Source: Raillietiella orientalis
Lineage: Eukaryota
Length of the DNA stretch: 64,000 bases
Reading direction: 5' to 3'
Assembly: GCA_036172245.1 (NCBI GenBank)
Contig: JAYWIR010000013.1
Span: forward strand, 4,154,001 to 4,218,000
This document shows positions 18,845 to 61,714 of the stretch, piece after piece. Within the stretch, counting starts at the first letter, position 1. Each line of letters starts with the position of its first letter. Under the pieces are notes generated by a model, which was given only the letters and a program-made list of their open reading frames with translations, was not told where the DNA came from and ran no database searches. A program made the translations under genes and the position numbers.

Positions 18845-20810
18845 GTGCCTGAGAACGAGCGAGCTGGTGAATGACGTCACTTCTTAGTCCCAGGCGAACG
18901 GAACTCTTCGGTGGAGCGAACTCTCGAGTGCGCCACTTGAAGAACTCGCGGACCCTCTTTTGTGTTTGGACACTTCCATGTCCCACTTGAGGTGAAAACA
19001 CGGCGTTCTTCTGCTTCCCCACTGGAGGGTTACCCATGCAATCAGAGTTGATCCCCTTGGCTACTAGGGAGTTGCATCCCGAAACTACTCAAGGTGCGGG
19101 ACGATCGGATCGCTCCCTCACCTGTTGCAGGACTGTGGCGCCGTCCACGAACAGCGGCAGACACTAGCAACAGCGCTCCTGCACGAAGAGGACACTGCCA
19201 AAGGCTTGGCAGTACCCCTCGGTATGCGGCCGTACGCAGCGCACAGGGCGTACTCGCTGTTGTTAAACTCGAGAGGTCTGATGACTGCGCTGCTCGGCAG
19301 AGTGGGCATAATGGTCCACCATCGACCCAACATGGCGGAGAAAACAGCAACTAATAAGGAAAGAACAAATCAAGATCATCCCGAAAAGCAAAGAACTCTG
19401 GCGAAAGGAATCCATCCTGGTTATCCCGTGGATGCTCCGCGTGCAAGATGACACCAGGAGCTGGATACGCCAGCGGTCCAGAGTTACTTTGAAAGCCACT
19501 GAGACATGGAGACCTCAGCGATACCTACACCATTCCAGGGTGCTCCGTTACGTCCAAAGGATCTCTGGCAGCTTCACCCATAGGACCCGCGAAGTGTGGA
19601 AAAACCATAACGACTTCGCGTGGTCCAGGATAACCAAGAACAACCTACGCCGACTAATAGTCGAGGAACAAGACACCAGTGCCCTCCAAGAAGCCGACGA
19701 CCACCACGCCAGCAGTCGATTTAATCCACTAGCGATTGGGACGATGCTCTGGCGGAATGATCTGCCACAGGACACTCAGGTTAACCTCCTTATGTTTTAC
19801 CATGGTGGCATCCTGAGTGGATCCAGAATGAAGTTTTTCACGGGCAAAAGGGAAGAAATCTGCAGAGCATGTGGTGGCATCGATACAAGACGTCATGTTT
19901 TGGTCTGCCCCACATTGCAAACCGAGTGGTTTACCCTTAAAAGGGTCATCGGGCTGCTTAATGACTCGGCCATGGCGGTCTTGGCAGGGATGTTCCAAGG
20001 AAATGGAACTGTTCCCTGCTATAACCCAGTGGTAAGAGTGACCATCGCCCTCTTCATCACCGCCATCCTTGTGCGGTGGTGGCAGATGAACACCACCAGG
20101 ACTGCCGTATCTTCGATGGACATCCTGAAAGGGCTTATCCAGAAGGAGATCGGCGTCAGAAACTGCGGAATAGTGCAGGCCTGGAACTACCGTCACATCC
20201 TGAGAAGGATTGAAGGCAGCATCTAGGCTCAAACGACGCTCAGGTGAATAAGTGCTCTTTTCAGAGACCCAAAGAAGTAGACTCCAAGCGCTTAATTGTG
20301 AAGTGCAGTGAAGTTATTGTGCAATTTGTATGAATGAGATTGTAGTGTGAATGAAAAGTAAATAAATTCACCCTACCCCTTGTGGGCGTGACGGGATGAT
20401 TCTGCTTGTGCGGCGGATTCTCTGCAGGTCCCTTGATTGCAGCGACGTGCTGCTTCCGCGCCATCTCCACGGTACTCCGTGTGCGGGCGTTTGGCGCGCA
20501 CACGGCGTACCGTGGCGAAGGGAGGACGCCCTCGCGGCAGCCGCCTGCATGAGGACGGCCGAGAGGTGGTCAAACCGGGAAGAAGAGAAGTCGTGCAGGA
20601 GATCCCCGGCATTCTGTACCGGTACTGGCCAGAAGGAGCGCCCGGTGCCAAAGAATCCTAGTCCTTACCCTTCATTTGTTTATTTATTGTCTCCTCCTTT
20701 TGCTCTTTGGACTGTTCCAGTAGCCAACCTGCGTGCCGGCGAACCCTCTCCTTGAAATTCCATTTTTTTTGTTTGGGGAGCGGCGTTTCCTCTTCCTTTA
20801 TTTTTTTCAA
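18845..20810 (+). mobile_element. 3' end of I-like non-LTR element A, interrupted by an insert at 19209-20390
   Basis: NYSRCGTIGSLPHLLQDC knuckle. An uninterrupted inverted homologue lies at about 51290-52066. Confidence 0.7.
19209..20390 (+). mobile_element. 5'- and 3'-truncated L1/Tx1-like LINE insert; open ORF2 C-terminal fragment 19432-20226 (zf-RVT-like)
   Basis: 264-aa open frame with CRACGGIDTRRHVLVC (CxxC..H..C). Homologous to 38220-39260 including the 3' UTR. Absent from the paralogous site at 51709/51710. Confidence 0.8.
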
Positions 20811-20829
20811 TGAACGTCCCCCCGGAGTG

Positions 20830-21529
20830 ACCAGGTGAAGAACTCTGCCCGAAAGGAAACCACGTTGCACTGGGTGACCCCATGCAACGCACGAGTCCGC
20901 CACTGGAAGAGGCGTGTTGCTGGTCCGGCCTGTGCCAGGCTCCTGGAACGGGAAACCTTCCCACACCTGTTGTTGGATCGTGTTGCCCTCCTGAGTGCCC
21001 GGGAACGCCTCTCTGCGGGGCCCTTCCGCTCCCCATGGGCAACGGCAGAGAGATCTTCGCTCGCTACGCGATGTCGCCAGCAGCTTCCCTCGCAGCTCGG
21101 TGCTGCCTTCGCGGATGGCGGCGTCGAGTAGCCGCACCGAGAGAGGTCAGTCGAACGGTGAGGTCGCCGCAGTCCTTCACAAGGAGGGAGGCGACAAGAT
21201 GGCACCGCCAACGAAAGGAGGAAGTTCGTCTGCCAATATCCTCCAGAGGCTGCTGAGGACACCAGGAAGAAATATGTGCTCCTTTCCCACCACTTGTCAA
21301 ACTGAACTTTCGTGTGTGTGTGTGTGTGTGTTTTTTTGTTTTTGTTACCCCTTCCCCACTCCCCCTGTGCCAAGACCTCATCGGGAAGCTGCTCACGAGA
21401 AGCAGCGCCTCCGAGGCATTTCCCTTCGTGGTGGTGATGTTGAAACCACTACGAAGGAAGGCATTTTTATATTTTATGTGACTGTTTTATGGGGTGAATT
21501 TTTCTTTTCAATAAATGTCCTTGCTTGAC
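20830..21529 (+). mobile_element. 3' end of I-like non-LTR element B with (GT)n and T-rich 3' UTR
   Basis: GPACARLLERETFPHLLLD knuckle remnant. Near-identical inverted copy at 50567-51270; diverged relative at 28710-29350. Confidence 0.75.
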
Positions 21530-37450: not shown

Positions 37451-38219
37451 GGCATGTCGTTCTCAGTAAAAAAGAGAAAATGAAAGAAACTTTTGACATG
37501 GGCGGCCCTCGATGCAGTCAGCATTTTGAGTTTTGAGGCGAAGGGAACGCGGAGGACTGCGGTCGCCCCATGCTGTGGCCACACCTAAAAACGGGATGGC
37601 GATCTCGAAATGTCCCGAAATGGAAGGAGCTTCCCATTCGTGGCTCTCACAGCAACAGCGAGGCTCGGGGAAGACCATCGTCCCCAACGAAATCTGGAAA
37701 GGAAAGCCCAAGGAAACGGCTGGGACGGAGTGAGGAATTTCGGGGGAGAGATGGGTGGCCGAGCACCTTCAGCAAAAGACATGACACGCCATGCCATGAC
37801 ATGACATGCCATTCCGTGTGACGAGAGAGAGAGAGAGAACGTAGTAAGTGACCCTGGGATTACGGGCTGGGCGGAAGGAGAAGACGGATGAAAACCGTGC
37901 TCATGACCCGGGTACCCCCACGAGCGTGCAGAAGAAATTGGAGATGAGAGGGGCAACCGTGTTCCAGAACCCCAAAATCGGCAAAGTCATTGACCACTCA
38001 TTCAAGTTCGCTGTGTCTGCCTCCCTGTTCGTGAGGTTCTTCCCTCCTGAGAGGAGGAGTACGGGAAGAAGCTTGAATAAAATTTTACACCGTATCATCA
38101 TCATTCACCATACCCCATCATCATCTTTACTCTTTGTAATGTTACTAAATTCGCTCGTTGGATTATGAAAATTCATACTGCTGTTCAACAATTTGGTTTA
38201 TTCCATTTCATCATCCAAA

Positions 38220-39260
38220 ATTATTTTTTTTTTTATTTAGACCACCCATCTCGATACAATCAGCAACATCCATACAATCACCAACACATAGACAACACTC
38301 TTAAAATTTCGATTTTCCCCAAGTCCCACAAGGGGTGGGGTCAATTTATTTTCTAATTTTGTCATTCACACTACAATCTCATTCATACTGTCTCGAACTT
38401 TGTTTTCACTTGGAAGTCTACTTTGGGATAACACAAGTTCTGCACCCAGGGTGGGTTCCTCGTTGTTGTTTCCCGGGAGTCCTCGATCTTCTTCAGAATG
38501 TAAAGGTACGTCCAGGCTTGGAGTCTTTCACAATTCCTGATGCCGATCTCCTTCATTAGTCCTTTCAGGATCTCCATCGGGGATGCGGCTGTCCTGGCTT
38601 TCCTCATCTTCCAACACCACACAAGTATGGCGGTGATGAAGAGGGCAATGGTCGTTCTTACCATGGGGTTGTAGCAGGGAGCATTCCCATTCCCTTGAAA
38701 CATCCCGGAGAGTATTCCCATTACTGAGGTGGTGGTTAGTCCTATGATCCTCTTCAGGATCAGCCAGTCGTGTAGCAATGTGGACACGTCAAGATGTGCA
38801 GTCTTGTGTCTGTGTCTGCACATGCCTTGCGGTCTTCGTCGTCCCGTCTTCCGGTGAAATGCTTCAGCCTGGAGCCGCTCAGGATTCTTCCGTGATAAAA
38901 CATCAGGAGGTTGTCCTGGGTGTCCGGCGGAAGGTCACTCCTCCAGAGCGTCGTGTCGATCGTTAACAGGTTGATCCTGTCACTCCCGTAGCGATCGGCT
39001 GCTTCTTCGAGGGCACTGATGTCTCTTTGGTCTTCTTTAATTATTTTCCGGAGGTTCAGCCTGTTCACCCTGGACCACGCATAGTTATCGTGGTTCTTCC
39101 ACACTTCGCGCGTCCTGTAGGTGAATCTTCCCAACATCATCTCTATATACCGAAGAATACGAGTGTGATAAAGGTATCCTCCTCTTCTCCATTCCTGGAT
39201 TCTTCGCAAGTTAACTCTGGGCCGCGGGTACATCCAGCTCCTCGTGTCCGGGGGCACTTT
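38220..39260 (-). mobile_element. 5'-truncated L1/Tx1-like LINE with 3' UTR and A-rich tail
   Basis: Frameshifted ORFs 38760-39257 and 38383-38823 are clearly homologous to 19432-20226 (TREVWKNH, LWRxDLP, MFYHG, GMFQGNG..PCYNP). A-rich end at about 38222-38240. Confidence 0.8.
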
Positions 39261-39789
39261 TCAAATTTCGATTCCAGCAAAGGTGACCATGTCGAATGCT
39301 CACCGTGTCACCTTGAAAATGAGAAGAAAGGACTTTATTCCACCGTGTTTAGATCCGATTTACAGAAGGTGCTCCAGATTGTTCATCGGAGACCTATGTT
39401 TGGATGGTGAAACTATCGGCTTAAAGCACGAGCAGTGTTTTTTTTTTTTTTTTAATGATTTGGACACCAGGAAGGCCCACTGCAATTTTTCACTCTTCAG
39501 ACGGTCATTCCCTCTATAGGAAGCACTCGTCCTCCTGTTGGCAGCTGGCATAAGTGAAGAAACGTTTGCATGAGGTCATCATGAGGAGCGGATCTGAGAG
39601 ATGCGTTGCTCAGCCAACCGGCTAGCTGGAAAGAGAGCCACCTCTAAGTCCGTTTCTGAACAGTTTCTTGAATGCGCTGATGGTATTCGAGAAAGAATCA
39701 CTCATCGGTTGCACAAGCCATTCTCGATTTGCGTTGTCTTCGAACTGAGGGGGTCAGCGCTGCCTTGAGCTTTCAGAAACCACGTTGGT

Positions 39790-40040
39790 TTCTAAAGGCG
39801 TTAGCGGCTAAGGTCTTCGTGCGTGGTACCAAGCGTTGCCCCCCTTGACTGGCTGGGATTGGAAGCTGACCCTCCGGGGTTCTCCCAGGAACCGAGGAGG
39901 CAATTCCCTTCGGGCTTGTCCCCCCTTCCGTTGTGCACATGGAGCCGTCCCTACTTTTCAGTGCTGGTGGGCCGTCCATCGAGTACCATGGAGCTAGTTG
40001 ATACCCCCTCCCTCGTGGGAGTCGCCTCCCCAGAGTGTTA
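39790..40040 (+). mobile_element. Internally deleted tRNA-SINE family copy, adjacent to the group II intron remnant
   Basis: gcggctaaggtcttcgtgcgtggtacca matches the head at 12022-12052; tgac.ctggctgg and cctccggg..tcc.cagga match the body. Confidence 0.6.
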
Positions 40041-40087
40041 ATTTCCTAACACATCCTTCGAAATTCTCGAAGACGTGGTTTTTTGGG

Positions 40088-40398
40088 TGAGGCAGAAAGG
40101 TGAACCACTGACGCATTTTGGAAAGTGCGTGAGAGATGACCTTTAAAAGTAGGGGGTAATGTCTAACCTAGGATGGATCTATGAAGAGCTTGTTGACTGG
40201 GTAGATGGCATTCATCATGATGGTGGAATGATCTATTTCTGGCTATTGTGTGGAACCACAGGACGACAACGAGGAAGAAAATTCAATGAGTCCCATGCGG
40301 AAAACAGGGGCTTACCAGCTCGTAGAGGTTTCGTGACGGAAATGGAGCGAAGGGTCTGAGTTATTCGGTTTTAATTATTTATCAACCGAAAGGGAAGG
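40088..40398 (+). ncRNA. Decayed group II intron ribozyme (3' part of domain I, domains II-III, start of IV), bacterial class D-like
   Basis: Collinear with my recollection of class D introns such as RmInt1: gaaaggtgaacc; ggct..gtggaac..cagga; gagtcccatgcgg..aggggc..gctcgta; gtgacggaaatggagcgaaggg (DIII); tcaaccgaaaggga.gatga. Confidence 0.75.
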
Positions 40399-41340
40399 AT
40401 GAATCAGCAAAACCGAGTCTTTTGGTATGCTGAAGCAAACCCATGTGGGGAGCTTTGTAAGCAGCTATCCAAAGAGCAAGGAGCCACGGGTGTGGGTGCC
40501 ATCACGGTAACAAAGTCTGAAGAAAATCGAAAAGATGACCTTTGCAAGTCATGGAATCGGTACTGGGGGGAGGGAGGGGAGATTAATTTGCCGAACCTGC
40601 GAAAGCTGCTTCCTGCAATACCAAAAGGGAGGAGGGAAGGATTTTTGTGCGCTTCCACAGTGTACAATGGGATGACGCAAGCAGCAGCCACGCCGCATCT
40701 CGAGCCGCTCTTGCAGGACCAAAACTTCCACACAAGCTCGTATGGATGTGGACCGAATACATCTGCGTTGGACGCGGTAAGGGATGCTGGGTCAAAGATC
40801 TTGATATATCTGTACTTTCGGACAATTCGGTCGACGAGTCAGAGCTGCGGATTATCAAGCAGCGTACGGACTGCAACTCGGTCATATGGTACATTAGAAG
40901 GTGGATGAAGGCTCAGCAAGCAGATGGCAGTACGGTGGCTGGAAGTTTTGCACGTTTGAAACAATTGAGCTATGAGCTCAATTATTTCAAACGTGTGTAT
41001 GCATCATGTATTTGATGATGTTGCTTGAAACAAAACCACGCGACAATTCCTGCCGTTCCAGAGAGATGTGGATGGTGTGATGGGGCATCGAAGCGGGCGG
41101 AACTCGATCGAAGAAAGTTTGGCAGGGTATAAGCTAAAATCACATCCTGAAAAGTGTGCCATAAGGACGAAGGTGGAATGGGTCCCGCACAAGCTTTTGA
41201 TTTTAGGGGGTTACACCTTTGGTCCGAGAATGACGCATCCGTGGAAGGCGGATACGATCCAGGAAATCTCACTCAGACGGAAAGAGCAATGTGAGGTTTG
41301 CATCTCGTGCTGACTCGATGATGGTTTCCTCAACCCTTCT
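40399..41340 (+). pseudogene. ltrA: Frameshifted group II intron reverse transcriptase/maturase (class D-like)
   Basis: QGATGVG..EENRKDDLCKSWNR (RT0), IPKG..STV..Q..LEP..FHTSSYGCGPNTSALDAV (RT1-2), WVKDLDI..DN..RTDCNSVIWYIRRWMKA (RT3), SSIISNVCMHHVFD (RT4), PFQRDVDG (dead YADD, 41065-41076), LKSHPEK (RT6), GYTFGPR (RT7). Confidence 0.9.
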
Positions 41341-42339
41341 ACTTTAATGGCGGCGGCGGTGTGCGGCTCGCAAATCGCGCGTCGCAAACCGTCACTGTGG
41401 AAGCCGTGAAGTCAGGCGGAAACCGTTCTTTCGGTTGGTCTTCCCTGGAAGAAAAGCCCATTTTTGGTTCTGTTTCAGCTCCTACACCATGTTCCCTGTT
41501 TCTGAATTTCAACTGAATCCATGCATGAAACGAGTTTCCTGCGCTGCAACCAGGGAGCCCAACGTACAATGGAAATCAGTAAACTGCAACTGCAAACTTT
41601 CTTCTGAAGCAGAAATGTTATCATCAACGAGAGAAATGAACGCAATGGTCAACAGGAAAAAATTGCATCTCGGGTGACGGATTTACTTTAAACACATACA
41701 GTAATCTGAAAAATAAAAGAGGGTGTGAGCAGATGCGAGGAGCTTGGTAGTTTTAGGAGTTGGCTAAGGGAACTGGAACACCTTTTCCGAAAGCTGCTTA
41801 CACTAAATGGTGAGGACAAAACACCACGGCTTGGAGCTGGTCGGAAAATTCGAAGGGAGGCGTCCGAGCTGGGGTTGGGCTGATCTCGAATTCCTGTGAA
41901 TAGGTGTTTGACCTTTCGGAGCCCCTTCTTCGTGTTTCCCTTATCCCCAGGACTTGGAAGATGGTGAAAGTTTGGCTGAATGGGTGAGTGCATCGGGAGG
42001 AGAAATCCCATCAGAGCCCTTCTATCAGGGATCAAAGAACTGATCCGGTGCGTATGCGATCCCGCGAGGATAGAGACTCGGGAAATTTTCAAGGGCTCGA
42101 GAGTTCCATTTAGTACCCACCTGAATGGGCGTCACCAAATAGGATCCATTGGGTGCGTCGATATTTTCTGTTTCTTGGTGAGCGGCTTTTTGACTACTAG
42201 CCAGTAAAGAAAATGAGAATTTGCGTGAGACTTCCACATTCATGATTGTGGAAGGTCAGATTCCATGCTCGGAGGTCAGAACGAAAAGTGGCCGACTACC
42301 AAACCGAGGATGAGGATGGTCTCAGCCTCGGCCAGCTCC

Positions 42340-43700
42340 GAGGTCGATGCAATTCTGTTCTTATGCAAGCTGTACGGGCCGGAAGCCCTGCAACGATTCG
42401 GACTTGATCTCTGTCTCTCCTGAGTGTCTCATTCCAACTCCTACCGTGCAAGCATTCCTCCACAGGATAAACTCCTCTTGGGTTAATTGCTCTCTGGGAT
42501 TTCAAAGGCTTCTGTGGAGAGCTAAGAACTAGGAGATCGAGGCGAAGGTTACTAAGATGACAAATTGAAAAATCGATACACTGAGAAATGCGTGAAGTAG
42601 ATGGAATTATGAAAAATCAACTATAAATGATGCAGATGCAATTCATGCCTGATCTCTCTGGTATATGCTATGCATGCGGGTCATCCACGTATGCATAGGA
42701 CGAATGATGGTAACTGACCGATGACTTTTCCTAGATAGCAATCCATCTGTCCTTGAAAATTTCCTGCAACTGTGCGGCATTTTGTACAGATGCTTTCCGA
42801 ATTGAGGAGATTCCATTACGAAGCCTTCGATGCATGTGGGAATTTCTCAAAACGAAAGCTTGCAGTAAGTCAGGAGACAGTTGAAAAGCATCCCTCCTTT
42901 TGGAAAATGGCTGCCGTAGATGGCTAAGCATGCAGAAAAGGAATTCCAGGGAATTCACTCCCTCTTTCTCCTTAACGTTAAGGACACACAGGATGCTCTA
43001 GTTTGGTTCTGCATGTGGAACGCTGTGCACTTATTTTGCCGGCAGAACAGGGAGAACAACTTCTTTTGCTTTTCAGGGATAAATTCGCTGCTCTGTCCTG
43101 GAATCGCACTTGTTCCTTCGATAAATCATTGCTGTACATAGGGACATTCAGGAGAATGCAGACAAACACTCGTGCAACGAGAATTTGCTGAGCAAATTCG
43201 GGAAGAAATTCGTGTCTGTGAAAAATAAGGGATGGCTTCCTTCACAACAACAAAAAATAAAAAAAAAAAACATGTGATTACGGCTGAGGCACCTCGAGCT
43301 ATCCTAAGTTAAGTATAGCTGTCTTCCATGCAAATTGCCTCTGTCCATGAGCTCCATACTCTTAGAGTATGTTTCTCGTCTGAGAAAATTTCAATCTTCC
43401 ATTGTGAGTGCACGTGCCGCCGGCCTTTATAACGGAAGTGGGAAGAAGAATGGGAAGAAGAATTGAAGAGTACGTCTGCAAAAGGAGACGCAAGGAAGAA
43501 CTTGAAAAAAAGAAATGTCTCTTTATTTCCGCGAGGAACGTCCATCGACTTTTCTCGAAACTTTGGAATGCTCTGCTCCATTCCTTTTTAATTAGCCGCC
43601 TCAACAAATTTCCAAAACTGCAGACAGCACACGCTCCAGTGAGACTCGGTCCAGCCGCTGAACCACCCATGGATACCAACGTTCTAATCTGTAGTTAACC
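42340..43700 (+). pseudogene. Decayed LRR gene with LRRNT-like cap
   Basis: SCTGRKPCNDSDLISVS..; KEFQGIHSLFLLNVKD; ALSWNRT; LFSKLWNALL..LNKFPKL. Confidence 0.45.
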
Positions 43701-43909
43701 TGTGGGTGCGCAGGAATCATTCATTTGGGAAATTTCACATTCCTGATCTACAAATGTATTTGTTCCATTACTCTCGTTCTCATTCTTATGGATATTAATC
43801 ATTTTCTTGGCGCAGAGAATGTCATTTCATCAGTACTAAATACATCGTTTCAATGATTTTTCTTTTGGTTTGATTTTGATACATGCAATAAAATTTCATT
43901 TAAGGGACT

Positions 43910-44340
43910 GTTCACGATTCCCGCCATCTTGTTTTGCTACCGGAGGCTCGCTGGCATGCGTTCATCCTGACCTCTGAGCCACGATGTGTCCCTCAGTTCG
44001 TGCCCTATCCACGCGCTGGCTCACACATCATCATCCTCTCCGTGCTCCCTGCCCGTGTGAGAGGTTCCATAATTCCGGGGTACCTCCAATTTACCCCCAG
44101 GTTCCACTCTCCCATGGATCCCATCACTAAAGCTCCTACCGAAGCCGTTCCTTCCGTCATCGGCGAAGAGGGATGACAGGTTCTTGCGTTTGCTCCATCT
44201 CCTTCCACTCTTCTTCCGATGCTGTGGTCAAGTCCTCGCATGAGTAGGCAACATCGAATGCGGCGAAGCGACCCTGGAGAGCCAACTCTGGATAGTTCCA
44301 GGTCGTCTCTCGGGATCGGTTGGTTTAAGGTTATTTTCTT
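43910..44340 (-). mobile_element. RT 5-7/thumb fragment of an R4/Dong-like non-LTR element
   Basis: Minus strand PRDDLEL (LYMDDLKL), DHSIG (FSxDIG), WRYPGIME (YKYLGIxE), QNKMAGIVN (ANKxxAIN). Confidence 0.5.
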
Positions 44341-46799: not shown

Positions 46800-47830
46800 G
46801 ATCTCCAAATTCTCCGAGCACCATCTAGGAAGCGGGAAGAAGGTCGATCTTGCCAACGGTGCCTGAAATGAGATCGAAAGTTGGCAGATGGCACTTTCAA
46901 CTGTACATCAAGTGCGAAGCACGAATCATAAAAGAATTTGCCTGCAACCAAGGAATTTCGAAGTGAACCCTCGTTGTGCCAGCGGATCGCGATCCCCCCA
47001 AAACAAAATAAAAATGGAACCACGTCATAATAAACGACGATGCCGCCCATTCGAGAACACATCGGTAGCGTCCTAGAAGAGAAAAGCTTGGAAAAAGCTT
47101 TCACTCTCAGAAACCAAGAGTCAGTTTGCGTGATCACCTTCAGACCATTGGAATCCCAGGAAGGTCGATTTCCTGCAAGAGTTGGAAACTCTTAGACCTT
47201 ATGGGACCTGGTAGAATGAAGTTGTCCTTCTTCCAGCATGGCCGAGACATCTGCTTAGTGCACCAGCTGGAACATTCTTCGTGCTAAAGCACAAAAGCAC
47301 TCAAGCAGAGGAAATGCTAGAAGACGACACGTCCCTTGACCTGCAAAGTCTTCGGAGTTCGTCCAAGCAGGCGCAGCGTAGTGACCGAATTCGACTGCCA
47401 GTGCTGAACTCGACACTGCGAGTATGAACCGAGGCTGTGGACCCGGCCAACACCCTTCCCCCATCAGCATTTATCTTGTTTCATCCTTTCGTGGACAGTG
47501 ACACAGCCCATGAGCTGAATGACGATGCTTGCTGGAGGCAAGCATGGTCTCTTGGAACTCGTGGCGGGAGTTCCAAGATGCCGTTTGTCTTGATTTCCCA
47601 GTTGTCAGCACGGCATCTTCAGGTTTTGGTGACGTCATCCGAATAGCTCAGAAATCTCTTCAAATTTCCTGTCACGTGCATCACACACAGCTGACTTCAT
47701 ACTCAAAGCACCTTTGTCCGCATGCCTCACGGGAGCTTTCACGTAAGACCTCAGTTCGCATCGCGGCTGTGAACTCCCCCAAGCATCGTTTCCACTCACA
47801 ACGAAGTGTACTCCACCCTTGAATAGCTCT
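46800..47830 (-). pseudogene. Decayed integrin alpha N-terminal beta-propeller (FG-GAP repeats)
   Basis: Ordered remnants: SYVKAP (LVGAP), YAAPAWTN..QGTC (ACAPxW..GxC), NFILPGP (LLGAPG), GSLRNSLVAGKF..DVQLKVP (YLGYSVxxGxF..DxxxGAP). Confidence 0.5.
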
Positions 47831-50566: not shown

Positions 50567-52066
50567 CATGCCGAGGCATTGATTGTAAAAAAAAAAAAAA
50601 AAATTCACCCCATAAAACAGTCACATAAAATATAAAAATGCCTTCCTTCGTAGTGGTTTCAACATCACCACCACGAAGGGAAATGCCTCGGAGGCGCTGC
50701 TTCTCGTGAGCAGCTTCCCGATGAGGTCTTGGCACAGGGGGAGTGGGGAAGGGGTAACAAAAACAAAAAAACACACACACACACACACGAAAGTTCAGTT
50801 TGACAAGTGGTGGGAAAGGAGCACATATTTCTTCCTGGTGTCCTCAGCAGCCTCTGGAGGATATTGGCAGACGAACTTCCTCCTTTCGTTGGCGGTGCCA
50901 TCTTGTCGCCTCCCTCCTTGTGAAGGACTGCGGCGACCTCACCGTTCGACTGACCTCTCTCGGTGCGGCTACTCGACGCCGCCATCCGCGAAGGCAGCAC
51001 CGAGCTGCGAGGGAAGCTGCTGGCGACATCGCGTAGCGAGCGAAGATCTCTCTGCCGTTGCCCATGGGGAGCGGAAGGGCCCCGCAGAGAGGCGTTCCCG
51101 GGCACTCAGGAGGGCAACACGATCCAACAACAGGTGTGGGAAGGTTTCCCGTTCCAGGAGCCTGGCACAGGCCGGACCAGCAACACGCCTCTTCCAGTGG
51201 CGGACTCGTGCGTTGCATGGGGTCACCCAGTGCAACGTGGTTTCCTTTCGGGCAGAGTTCTTCACCTGGTCACTCCGGGGGGACGTTCATTGAAAAAAAT
51301 AAAGGAAGAGGAAACGCCGCTCCCCAAACAAAAAAAATGGAATTTCAAGGAGAGGGTTCGCCGGCACGCAGGTTGGCTACTGGAACAGTCCAAAGAGCAA
51401 AAGGAGGAGACAATAAATAAACAAATGAAGGGTAAGGACTAGGATTCTTTGGCACCGGGCGCTCCTTCTGGCCAGTACCGGTACAGAATGCCGGGGATCT
51501 CCTGCACGACTTCTCTTCTCCTTGGTTTGACCACCTCTCGGCCGTCCTCATGCAGGCGGCTGCCGCGAGGGCGTCCTCCCTTCGCCACGGTACGCCGTGT
51601 GCGCGCCAAACGCCCGCACACGGAGTACCGTGGAGATGGCGCGGAAGCAGCACTTCGCTGCAATCAAGGGACCTGCCGAGAATCCGGCGCACAAGAAGAA
51701 TCATCTCATCAAGCCTTTGGCAGTGTCCTCTTCGTGCAGGAGCTCCGTGCTATTGTGTGCCGCTGTTCGTGGACGGCGCCACAGTCCAGCAACAGGTGAG
51801 GGAGCGATCCGATCGTCCCGCACCTTGAGTAGTTTCGGGATGCAACTCCCTAGTAGCCAAGGGGCCAACTCTGACTGCATGGGTAACCCCCCAGTGTGGA
51901 AGCAGAAGAACGCCGTGTTTCCACCTCAAGAGGGACACCGAAGTGTCCAAACACAAAAGAGGGACCGCGAGTTCTTCAAGTGGCACACTCGAAAGTTCCC
52001 TCCACCGAAGATTTAAGTTCACCCAGAGTGTCGGCATCCACCAGCTTGCTCGTCTTCCAGCCACCC
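50567..52066 (-). repeat. Inverted duplicate of 18845-21529 lacking the L1-like insert (LINE A and LINE B 3' ends)
   Basis: ORF translations are identical between copies (e.g. 20658-21137 vs 50963-51442, 159 aa; 20882-21256 vs 50844-51218). The outer part is visibly more diverged. Confidence 0.95.
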
Positions 52067-57130: not shown

Positions 57131-58329
57131 AAAAAAAATCAAAGTTGACTGGAAGCCCTGTCTGACGACAGACCTATAATCAAGAGCACTCACGAAATGA
57201 ACACTTGGAACTTTTGCACAAGAGCTACATTATCTCACAATGACTGGACTTTGCACTCTTAAATTGGTGCGCGAAAACACGAGCTAGCCGAAATTTTAAA
57301 TACCCTAAGTCTCTTTAGAATCTAAAAAGAAAAAGAAAAAGAAAAAAATGAGACGTGAGAATGTGAGGCGAATGAGATTCAAGGAACCTGAGGATGGCAA
57401 ATGATTACGTTTTCCGCTCTATAGAATTTCCCTTGAAGGGAATCTCAAAAGCATTTCTTGCATTTCCATAGTAAGAGCGAGCCTGGACTGCATGAGACAG
57501 TGTTCCGAGGTCAGAATGCAAATGTCGGAAGCGGTTATTACAAAGGAAAGAGGAAGAACTGATGCTGCGGGCGGTAATATCGTGGGTTTAAAGAAAAGGA
57601 TCCCTCAAGTTCAGAACCTGGCTTCATGCTTCTTAGGTAACAGATGATGGGTACCAAAGATGGCCGCAGAGATGACATAGGTTGCAACAGTGTCCAAATC
57701 AATCGGTGGAAAGCTTAGGGCTTGCATAGGGAGAAAATCTCGCTGCTGCACTGCTGCTTGCATCAAACATGGAAGTGCTGTGGGGGAGAACAGTCACGTG
57801 AATTATATCGGTGTTGATGTGTATTCCCCAGAAAATGCTGAACATTCTGAAGCACCAAGTGTGAATTTGCATGCATGGAACGTGTACAACGCGTATTTAA
57901 TTCAAGATTCTATTGACATTGGGAAGTTTAGGTCTTCGTTTAAGGAAAGACCGGAAAGATTGGGCAACGCATGGGATGAAGCTGAAAGTGAGAAGAAAAT
58001 GGCTGCCGGAACCGGAATCGCAGTAGGTCCTACCTCACACTTGTAGCCCACGCGGTAATCGCAAAGCAACAGCGCTCTTTCCGGAATTGGGGCTCTTGCT
58101 GTACAAAACCCTCCTTTCATATTTCTTCAAAACTAATTTCATGTCCATCACAATGGTTAGCATCATAAAGCAGCTGGGATGCGTATGTGTATGAGTTTTG
58201 ACTTGATTTTAACCCTTTGCCCTCCAAGAGTTTGTTGACACGACCGACCAGCAACCCCCCAGCAACCGAAAATAGGAAGAGTAATGGCTTTGCTTTGATA
58301 AGAAAAAAAAATGATAAATGTTCATCCAT

Positions 58330-58755
58330 CGGGTGGTTCGCTGCGATGGTTCTTCTCGCAAAGCTGTCGGTTTCTTCTTCGATGATCCCCTTGACAAGCT
58401 CTTCTGTGAAGAATAAGTAGAAATATTCTGTTGGTTCCACAATGTTCGATGCAATCTGTGGTCCAGTGACCCTGGGAGAAACTGTAAAATTAATCCTTTC
58501 TGGAACCCTTTCGCTATCCATTATATCGACCCATTCATCTTCTTCTCCGAAAGAACTTTCACTCTCGATGATTCCGATTCTTCGTCGCCGTTTCACAGTA
58601 ATTTCGCTATCACTAGAAAGAATTCCAGAATCATCATCACTTGCACCATCTTCAGATGCAGCATCAGTTAAATTGTCATCAACTAGGTACAAATGAAGTT
58701 CTTCTTCACTTTCACTCAATTCGAAATTTTCATAATCCCTTTCCTCTTTATCCAT
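58330..58755 (-). pseudogene. piggyBac transposase N-terminal fragment (no DDD core)
   Basis: MDKEERD..., acidic/Ser-rich stretch, then TGPQ..EPTEYFYLFFTEELVKGIIEEETDSFA (cf. PxExFxLFFxxxLxxxIVxxTNxYA). The catalytic region is missing before the 3' TIR. Confidence 0.85.
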
Positions 58756-59026
58756 CTTTAGCAAATTGCTTTGCAACTGACTGATGGCAGTTAGAGAGCA
58801 ACTTTTATAGCAAAGTCGAGGTCCCGTTCGAAAAGAGGCAAACTTTAAGAAATCGTGGCAGCAACTTTGCACCGTGCAGTGTTTGCAGAGCAGTGATCTG
58901 TAACGGGAAGCTGTGCACCATCACGGCGCCGCTTCCTCCCACTCACTTCGACGAGCGGTCTGCAATGTAAAGAATGCATAACTGCGGTCCCCCCATTCCC
59001 ACGCATCGACACAATACGTCCTCTCA

Positions 59027-59370
59027 GGTGCCCTTTTCAATGTCCCCTCGGCGGGGCCAGGGGAGGAGTGGCGCCGTTTTCAATGTCCCCTCGGCGGGGC
59101 CAGGGGAGGAGTGGCGCCGTTTTCAATGTCCCCTCGGCGGGGCCAGGGGACGTGTGGTGCCCTTTTCAATGTCCCCTCGGCGGGGCCAGGGGACGTGTGG
59201 TGCCCTTTTCAATGTCCCCTCGGCGGGGCCAGGGGACGTGTGGTGCCCTTTGCAATGTCCCCTAGGCGGGGCCAGGGGAGGAGTGGTGCCCTTTTCGACG
59301 TCCCCTCGGCAGGGCCAGGGGACGTGTGGTGCCGTTTTGAATGTGCCGTCAGAGGAGCCAGTGGAGTGAG
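59027..59370. repeat. 43-bp minisatellite, 7 full units plus a degenerate 8th running into the TIR
   Basis: Unit ggtgcccttttcaatgtcccctcggcggggccaggggacgtgt starts at 59027, 59070 and so on to 59328. Confidence 0.97.
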
Positions 59371-59989
59371 AAGGGTTAAAGGTTTTTGACGATTTTTCAA
59401 TTTAGAAAGCCACAAATGAGAATTGTGTGACTTTTGCAATCAGCTGAAAGACAGTAATGTCTCTAATAGTGCATAAAAGATGAAATTTTTTGAAAACTGT
59501 TACATAATGAGATGATAACCTTGAAGATGAGGAATTAAGTGCCTGCTGGGGAATTAAAAAGGGCGGATGAATGCGGATGAGAAAAGCTATACAGTACAAA
59601 CATATTTTGCTTCTACAAAGACCGCGTTCCTTATATATGCATGAAAAATGCATAATTCAAAAATAAAATGGACTTTCCAGTGAAAGTCTTTTGTGACAAC
59701 ACAAGTGAAGTGGTCTAATGCTCTTCAGCTTCGGTATGAATATTCATGCCTACAGATACAAGCTTCTCGAGATCATGTTTTCCCTTATTAACTTCGGTCA
59801 CAGGCAAGAATGATTTACCCAGGTTTCGCAACGCACACTCGGAATGGTTCTGTACATACATTATGGACTCTTGTACTCATCTGAAAAACTACTTACCGAG
59901 GCAGAGATCTGTAATGCATTTCCGAAAGTTCCCGAGCGTGCTGGGTCTGCGGTTTGTGCGAAGGATGAAGAAGCAGCCGTGAACCTTGG

Positions 59990-60878: not shown

Positions 60879-61714
60879 ATGGCTGTCGGCCAGGACACAC
60901 TACTCACATCTGGTACGACTTTTAATTTCATGGTTATCATGTTAAAATAGTAGTCTCTTCATTAGCCATCCCAATGGTACTTCAGATAGTGCCTCCACAG
61001 CAAGTAGATGCACAAAACTCTTTGGTGTATATACCACCATCTATTACGCCTGTTGGTATGCAGCAAACAGTATGTGTATCTGGAAATGGAAATCAACCTG
61101 TATTTGTTGTACCACAAGGTAATTTGTAATATTTCACAAAAGAGTTACACAGCCTTTCAGAATCTATTCCCACTAATATAGAGTCAGTTGGATCTCCTGT
61201 CTGGCTCTATGTTTCAATTCCTCAAGTTGTGGATGGTGTTGATCTGAGTGAGCTACAACAGTTTGCAGGAGCTGTGCGCCATAGAAGACAAGAACTGGGT
61301 TTAACACAGAGCCAAGTAGGCCAAGCTTTGCAAGCTTATAGCCAGAGTGCCATTTGTCGTTTTGAAAAATTGGATGTAACACCCCGCAGTGCCAAGAAGA
61401 TTCGCCCCTTATTAGAGCGCTGGATGTCAGAAGTGGTACAAGGATGCCAAGAAGACTGTGCACCTAGAAAGCGCAAAAAAAGGACCATCTTCACTTCCAG
61501 CACTTTACATGCTTTGCATGCAGCTTTCCAGAGGAACAGTCGGCCTTCTAGTAAGCAAATAATATGTTTGGTTCATCGTGTTTAATTCTGATTTTGTGTA
61601 GGTACTGAACTAACTCTTTTATCCCAACAGTTAGGATATGATCGAGAAGCTATCCGCATTTGGTTTTGTAATAAAAGACAAGCCATGCGCCACACAGCAC
61701 AGCATTCATGCTGA
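60879..61714 (+). CDS. POU6: Class VI POU-domain transcription factor (POU6/pdm3-like); exons 60879-60912, 60966-61118, 61161-61550, 61602-61714; true start uncertain
   Basis: POU-specific DGVDLSEL..LGLTQSQVGQAL..YSQSAICRFEKLDVTPRSA and homeodomain KRKKRTIF..YDREAIRIWFCNKRQA. Three GT-AG phase-1 introns (53, 42, 51 nt) keep the frame open to TGA at 61712-61714. Confidence 0.92.

Follow-up and report, generated by a model that had tools for sequence, protein, structure and literature searches.

A decayed Wolbachia-type group II intron fragment in DNA of Raillietiella orientalis, probably an old nuclear transfer

The DNA analysed here, called the window in the following, is a stretch of 64,000 nucleotides from an assembly of Raillietiella orientalis (GCA_036172245.1, contig JAYWIR010000013.1, positions 4,154,001 to 4,218,000 of the forward strand). 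It contains, on the plus strand at 40097-41229 (numbered from the first letter of the window), a single collinear piece of a group II intron, which is 1.13 kb long, corresponds to the internal part of such an intron and is referred to below as the fossil. A DNA profile of 1851 positions, for which 10 copies of the intron were taken from a single Wolbachia genome, matched it with nhmmer over profile positions 162-1380 (526 bits, E 8.4e-160); nothing else in the window was matched by this profile. A whole-intron profile, which like the 5' non-coding profile mentioned below was built from six class D-type introns, gave one match in the 64 kb (40072-41237, 188 bits, E 5e-58) and otherwise none below E 0.4. 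The fossil consists of the following parts, where RT denotes reverse transcriptase and RT0 to RT7 its sequence blocks:

40097..41229, plus strand: the whole fossil, a Wolbachia-type (class D-like) group II intron fragment (nhmmer, blastn)
40097..40398, plus strand: ribozyme remnant with distal domain I, domains II-III and the 5' side of domain IV (nhmmer with the 5' profile, blastn)
40399..40785, plus strand: RT0-RT2a in frame 0, still open from the ATG at 40399 (tblastn, local alignment, phmmer, hmmsearch)
40788..40946, plus strand: RT3 in frame 2 (local alignment, hmmsearch, tblastn)
40957..41232, plus strand: RT4-RT7, again in frame 0 (tblastn, local alignment)
41168..41254, plus strand: frame-1 stretch with the last recognisable RT residues (frame-wise local alignment)

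The segment upstream of the coding part was matched by the 5' non-coding profile (nhmmer, 40083-40428, E 1.5e-24), and a lenient blastn comparison with an RmInt1-type intron gave the two matches 40097-40256 and 40288-40366. The names of the ribozyme domains were assigned by position in the relatives, not by folding. The ribozyme remnant reaches as far as the ATG at 40399, with which the intron-encoded protein (IEP) starts. About 190 nt of the intron's 5' end, including the region described by the Rfam model RF01999, are absent; an intact 5' end at GTGCG 39819 was considered and dropped, there being no profile match upstream of about 40072. At the 3' end about 455 nt are absent, which comprise the thumb/maturase (X) domain and the domains V-VI (RF00029). 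Neither local alignment nor the class D profile search aligned the IEP past residue ~300 in any frame, and no homology was found beyond about 41254.

In the coding part, the landmarks of a group II intron RT are visible by eye on the plus strand from 40399 to 41254. Residues 1-300 of class D proteins, and with them the RT blocks 0-7, could be aligned in order over three frames. Along this reading path there are at least three frame changes and three in-frame stops; frame 0 contains stops at 40906, 40957, 40966 and 41026, of which the last three lie on the path. The YADD motif of the relatives is replaced by DVDG (41065-41076), and the 'PQGG' stretch of RT4 is mostly lost. By tblastn, residues 16-292 of the RmInt1-type protein of a Sinorhizobium meliloti plasmid (L002, 2114-3373) aligned to 40450-41232 (E 6e-13 within the 64-kb window), and the alignment of a Bradyrhizobium IEP starts at its Met-1, which falls on 40399 (E 2e-9). 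With a class D protein profile, hmmsearch found the RT0-RT2a part at 40459-40815 (independent E-value 4.4e-13) and the RT3 part at 40785-40937 (independent E-value 7e-9); the latter is also matched by plasmid ltrA genes (tblastn) and reached a local alignment score of 113 against residues 133-184 of the RmInt1-type protein.

A preliminary description of the locus, made from the letters alone, had reported RT0-RT7 in order across frameshifts with YADD decayed to DVDG, and some 310 nt of upstream sequence collinear with ribozyme domains. The former was borne out by tblastn and frame-wise local alignment, the latter by the 5' non-coding profile. Of the limits proposed there (40088..41436), the left one stands; the right one lies about 200 nt too far downstream. 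Judged from its sequence, the fossil derives from a group II intron but is no working member of this class, having neither an X domain nor a six-domain ribozyme with its GUGYG 5' end and domain V. Because the 5' end, the maturase/thumb domain and the catalytic domains V-VI are absent, it should be unable to splice, to encode an RT or to move.

Scans of general libraries are silent on this locus. Pfam reported no RT family in nine open reading frames (ORFs) taken from the separate frames at E<=1. The group II models of Rfam, which the preliminary description had put forward as a check, gave no match in the window: nothing was found at E<=1 in 38000-44000 and nothing at gathering score in the whole window. 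The intact control introns L001, L002, L015 and L016 explain this outcome, as Rfam matched in them only RF01999 near the 5' end and RF00029 at domains V-VI. In the Wolbachia copy L015 these matches lie at 967-1080 and 2697-2772, and the fossil corresponds to L015 1105-2319; Rfam is silent because the fossil is the stretch between the two modelled regions. A word-based protein search at its 'longer' lengths scored none of 678 candidates, and a 'distant' blastn search of 39250-43250 against plasmids gave no match. A second copy of the decayed sequence was not found in scans with the single protein, where 224 pattern stretches in metagenome contigs and 125 in species genomes yielded no confirmed case.

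The lineage of the fossil was determined at protein level. When its 177-residue open piece was compared by phmmer with 1.84 billion representative proteins, 75 matches were obtained at E<=1e-3 and none at 1e-10; the best had an E-value of 2.4e-8, and identities were 33-40%. All 12 examined of these 75 matches have an RmInt1-like N-terminus. For further comparisons, a read-through protein was assembled by joining the frames, with X at breaks and stops. Among 15 plasmid-borne proteins, 14 of which are group II IEPs, it scored 70-112 bits with the six that are at least 46% identical to RmInt1, and at most 52 bits with the remaining nine. Solved RTs of other lineages gave 12-16 bits, RmInt1-like proteins 45-50 bits; the search of solved structures returned only four matches, all weak (E>=0.054). 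In two trees, a clade holding RmInt1 contains the window protein with a support of 99 in the Shimodaira-Hasegawa-like approximate likelihood ratio test (SH-aLRT), this clade comprising 11 of 20 rows in one tree and 32 of 36 rows in the other. In the tree panel RmInt1 alone carries a published class, the other lineages being unlabelled. RmInt1 is assigned to IIB3/class D in one account (PMC5894124). The term 'class D-like' for the fossil is supported by this placement, on the level of sequence comparison.

RmInt1 of S. meliloti and the fossil share the IEP clade, the order of the motifs and a recognisable 5' ribozyme segment; the identity is 33% over 285 residues. However, RmInt1 is farther from the fossil than the Wolbachia copies are (112 versus 160 bits), and it is intact and mobile, whereas the fossil is a fragment. 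The IEP of RmInt1 is without an endonuclease domain; the corresponding C-terminal part of the fossil is absent. The preliminary description had put EcI5 beside RmInt1 in class D; EcI5 belongs to the chloroplast-like class IIB1. As an observation on the control sequences, the RmInt1-type intron of L002 (S. meliloti plasmid CP140952.1, 1560-3610) lies inside the YADD codons of another group II RT gene, and a second RmInt1-type copy follows directly after domain VI of the first; this is an intron-in-intron arrangement in tandem.

The nearest relatives were identified by scanning the genomes of 185,579 prokaryote species, each represented once, with an alignment of the window piece and 11 library matches as query. 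Among the 483 related stretches that were confirmed, the top two, with E-values of 2e-20 and 3e-20 and identities of 45-46%, are located in one Wolbachia genome, and the third-best stretch (E 2e-14) follows six orders of magnitude behind this pair. At DNA level, blastn aligned 40100-41229 to L015 1105-2319 with 64% identity over 1244 columns, and one Wolbachia genome contains about 25 long matches to the fossil with 65-68% DNA identity. On the fossil, the profile of the Wolbachia copies scores 526 bits, that of the six other class D introns 188 bits, and the AT-rich non-coding runs near the ORF start are almost identical to the Wolbachia profile. With Wolbachia IEPs, the read-through protein is 41% identical (154-160 bits); the best of 78 others reached 112 bits. 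In the protein tree, the window groups with the two Wolbachia rows with a support of 100/100. In the DNA tree, the fossil falls within the clade of Anaplasmataceae introns (100/100), with its place among the Wolbachia subfamilies left unresolved. Matches were found in 24 of 98 Anaplasmataceae genomes, at 65-67% identity.

The Wolbachia introns used here (the wStri copies L015, L016 and L094-L103) are collinear with the fossil over 1133 nt and share with it the ribozyme segments and RT0-RT7. Unlike them, the fossil is devoid of the 5' and 3' ends, shows at least three frame changes, three stops and DVDG for YADD, and has a G+C content of 0.48 instead of 0.40. Group II introns are reportedly abundant in Wolbachia, which Leclercq et al. 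are said to have described in 2011. Wolbachia genomes are also called rich in these introns in a further account (PMC11376236). The preliminary description had spoken of a bacterial, class D-like fossil and had guessed at an intracellular symbiont as the donor. The former agrees with the RmInt1-clade placement and with the low scores of solved RTs from other lineages, the latter with the two Wolbachia copies being the nearest of all confirmed stretches. LINE (long interspersed nuclear element) RTs or organellar IEPs as best matches, which had been named there as contrary evidence, did not appear, the matches being Wolbachia- and RmInt1-like.

The mode of decay was analysed at 908 sites at which three Wolbachia subfamilies agree. 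The window differs from them at 233 sites (74.3% identity). Changes from AT to GC occurred at 133 of 554 AT sites, changes from GC to AT at 59 of 354 GC sites. Differences per codon position 1/2/3 are 0.264/0.220/0.345 for the fossil versus 0.078/0.052/0.197 for living Wolbachia subfamilies; this near-even spread indicates that the protein was not under selection while most of the divergence arose. The G+C content of the fossil is 0.479 and its ratio of observed to expected CpG 0.86, the values of the window are 0.50 and 0.83, and the G+C content of the Wolbachia copies is 0.39-0.41. In the AT-rich DNA of Wolbachia, a decaying pseudogene should not have become richer in G+C. The GC-ward drift, together with the non-bacterial flanks described below, makes contamination unlikely. 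CpG depletion, tried as a clock for the time of residence, proved uninformative, as the CpG ratio of the host DNA is itself 0.83 at a G+C content of 0.50, in contrast to vertebrate genomes with heavy methylation. The end branch of the fossil in the DNA tree has a length of 0.59 changes per site, compared with a median of 0.048. Neutral rates of invertebrates are 1e-9 to 1e-8 per site per year; combined with the 233 differing sites and the DNA branch, they suggest that the fossil is some 10^7-10^8 years old or older, to be read as an order of magnitude only. As a side observation, transitions relative to the Wolbachia consensus are asymmetric on the sense strand, with a frequency of 0.215 for A>G (65 of 303 sites) and of 0.155 for T>C (37 of 239 sites), which could result from a transcription-linked mutation bias or from chance.

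In the assembly, the fossil is contiguous with host repeats and with an exon encoding part of a POU-homeodomain protein. Two features of this context are:

38325..39248, minus strand: old host LINE-like 3' end (self-blastn: 70% to 19450-20207, 86% to 20328-20386)
61130..61585, plus strand: exon encoding a POU-specific domain and homeodomain positions 1-34 (Pfam Pou 3.2e-21, Homeodomain 2.4e-6)

The exon, which we take to resemble the POU6 class, is probably part of a real host gene, and its predicted product identifies the contig as nuclear DNA of an animal. Where the preliminary description had named a SINE and an L1 on the left of the fossil and LRR debris on its right, the LINE-like repeat at 38325-39248 was found on the left, and Pfam gave no match above threshold on the right. 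Among 105 ORFs of at least 70 amino acids in 33-49 kb, Pfam (E<=1e-3) detected no bacterial or mitochondrial gene family beside the fossil. The sole Pfam match among them was a sub-threshold one to Glyco_tranf_2_4 at 47215-47424 on the plus strand (E 4.4e-4, 21.1 bits versus a cutoff of 27.5), a segment for which tblastx found no similarity to Wolbachia. A blastn comparison of 20 kb on either side of the fossil with one Wolbachia genome gave nothing, with the fossil itself serving as positive control. When the entire window was compared by tblastx with 1.786 Mb of Wolbachia genome, only 40147-40561 and 40779-40921 matched, and all matches in the 98 Anaplasmataceae genomes are confined to 40097-41154 of the window. 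The preliminary description had recognised no other bacterial gene next to the fossil and had taken its decay as an argument against contamination. Pfam, tblastx and the comparison with 98 genomes agree with the first statement; the excess of AT to GC changes and the even spread over codon positions support the second.

For a fossil of this identity and these limits, with Wolbachia introns as nearest relatives, no Wolbachia-like DNA beside it and a neutral, GC-ward decay, the most plausible origin is a dead, old and isolated nuclear transfer of Wolbachia-type intron DNA, and we consider this reading probable. As is the case for nuclear transfers from Wolbachia, the nearest relatives are found in this genus, and both the neutral decay and the composition are host-like. 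The donor genus, a route at the level of DNA and the great age are what we infer beyond these observations. The donor would have been a Wolbachia-like intracellular bacterium carrying dozens of class D-type group II intron copies. A short piece of its DNA, lying within one intron copy, may have been joined into the nuclear DNA of the host germ line, probably in the course of end-joining repair of a chromosome break. The piece would never have had, or would have lost later, the 5' end, the maturase/thumb domain and the domains V-VI. Both ends of the fossil lie at arbitrary internal positions of the intron, which fits a random DNA fragment as well as later deletions. Neutral drift would then have introduced indels, frame shifts and stops and raised the G+C content from about 40% toward the 50% of the host.

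Several points weigh against this origin. An approximately unbiased test retains at the 0.05 level a tree in which the window is placed with the RmInt1 trio (log-likelihood lower by 41.3, p 0.084). The branch of the window is very long, with 2.16 changes per site for the protein and the 0.59 already given for the DNA, and even the closest Wolbachia copies are only about 67-71% identical. A relative not yet sampled, or some other bacterium carrying introns of this lineage, could have been the donor, and the GC excess could in part be older than the transfer. Introns of this type account for only about 2.6% of one Wolbachia genome (about 25 copies of 1.85 kb in 1.786 Mb), so that a random fragment consisting of intron only is a priori uncommon. 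Moreover, the recognisability of RT motifs biases which fragments get reported.

The donor question leads to the first alternative, according to which DNA was likewise transferred from a symbiont to the nucleus, the donor being a bacterium other than Wolbachia (for example another symbiont of arthropods or nematodes) with the same intron lineage. Group II introns move between bacteria, and the best DNA identity among the 24 matching Anaplasmataceae genomes is only 65-67%. The difference in G+C content (0.479 versus 0.39-0.41) and the lack of a resolved subfamily in the DNA tree point in the same direction. In contrast, the two best stretches from 185,579 species are both from Wolbachia and the clade is supported with 100/100; the agreement with the Wolbachia profile in the AT-rich non-coding stretches near the ORF start is nearly letter for letter. 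The even distribution of changes over codon positions suggests in addition that the divergence is mostly due to decay after the transfer and not to a distant donor. On balance, we regard a donor outside Wolbachia as rather unlikely.

The absence of any bacterial exon or gene on either flank, so that only intron sequence is present, would also be explained if the excised intron had entered as RNA or cDNA, copied and integrated by its own RT or by the RT of a host LINE, and the truncation at the 5' end resembles that of abortive reverse transcription. However, about 455 nt of the 3' end, i.e. the region with domains V-VI where cDNA synthesis would begin, are gone as well. Reading by eye, neither poly(A) nor direct repeats are seen at the ends of the fossil, and their arbitrary internal positions are those of a random DNA fragment or of later deletions. 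That the intron of a germ-cell symbiont was reverse-transcribed into animal nuclear DNA and lost its 3' end afterwards therefore appears very improbable to us; if true, it would echo in the living world a step by which spliceosomal introns have been proposed to arise.

Wolbachia genomes do contain short degraded intron pieces (short matches of 70-78%), and such a pseudogene of a contaminating or resident bacterium might have been mis-joined into an animal contig during assembly. Contrary to this, the flanks match none of the 98 Anaplasmataceae genomes, nor one Wolbachia genome by tblastx. The composition of the fossil equals that of the host, and the changes from AT to GC run against the composition of Wolbachia. 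Furthermore, only 1.13 kb would be foreign within 64 kb of repeat-bearing eukaryotic DNA, whereas a chimera normally brings a longer bacterial stretch. We give an assembly artefact very little credence.

Finally, a nuclear insertion of organellar DNA (NUMT) that brought in a group II intron of mitochondria is scarcely credible, and so is the misreading of a LINE RT of eukaryotes as group II: although mitochondrial debris is described as the known source of nuclear group II sequences (PMC4424553) and a few animal mitochondria are reported to carry group II introns (PMC2198948), the examined phmmer matches were without exception RmInt1-like and of bacterial type, annotated group II ltrA genes are the best hits, the 300-nt upstream part fits a class D ribozyme, the closest relatives are Wolbachia introns, and the 105 ORFs of 33-49 kb include no mitochondrial gene family.

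As a transfer from Wolbachia, the fossil can be compared with the nuclear Wolbachia transfers ('nuwts') known from arthropods and nematodes, which are likewise degraded, non-functional symbiont DNA in a host chromosome and a record of past infection; the source family, the abundant group II introns of Wolbachia, is also shared. The Wolbachia remnants described for the woodwasp Sirex noctilio include an ORF similar to a group II intron RT, for which 74-95% protein identity is reported (PMC8962096). In contrast to this nuwt, the fossil is 1.13 kb long, consists entirely of intron and has no other Wolbachia-like sequence in 64 kb, and with 65-69% DNA identity it is far more diverged than the woodwasp ORF. 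Nuclear Wolbachia remnants of this kind in filarial nematodes are the subject of a study entitled 'Ghosts of symbionts past' (PMC12693587), and about 20% of the projects on arthropods and nematodes are stated to have revealed transfers from symbionts to hosts (PMC4299567). According to one source, nuclei exclude group II introns, the exception being debris of mitochondrial origin (PMC4424553). The mitochondrial intron debris of plant nuclei treated there resembles the fossil in being inert group II sequence whose DNA was transferred to the nucleus out of an endosymbiotic compartment, but in our case a class D-like lineage of bacterial symbionts is the source and an animal the host. Every large Wolbachia insert implies that group II debris from bacterial symbionts occurs in nuclei, and there is one explicit report of it. 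In a limited literature collection, neither a published description of this locus nor one of an isolated class D fossil from the nuclear DNA of an animal was found.

If the favoured origin from a Wolbachia-like donor is correct, the locus is a clear case of an animal nucleus that holds group II intron sequence from a bacterial symbiont, and it would record the presence of such a symbiont in ancestors of the host, perhaps some tens of millions of years back or earlier. Orthologous copies in related species, if they exist, would date the infection by presence and absence. No principle is changed, as transfers from symbiont to host are common and the copy is dead; the value lies in a possible dated trace of infection and not in a new mechanism.

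Some further features of the window were noted. Inverted copies of a repeat of ~1.4 kb, 97-99% alike, are located at 18893-21508 and 50594-52023, 29 kb apart and bracketing the fossil. The first copy is interrupted by a LINE-like 3' piece at about 19170-20384. The LINE family must therefore have been active recently, whereas the copy beside the fossil is old (70% identity). On the minus strand, 58117-58920 contains an open frame of 267 amino acids, which by eye is like the acidic N-terminal region of piggyBac-type transposases and has no Pfam match. At 58984-59408 a 43-nt unit is repeated in tandem, giving seven overlapping registers of 167 nt that are offset by 43 nt each and 68-100% alike; in three frames this array translates as repeats of the SPRRGQG... 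type.

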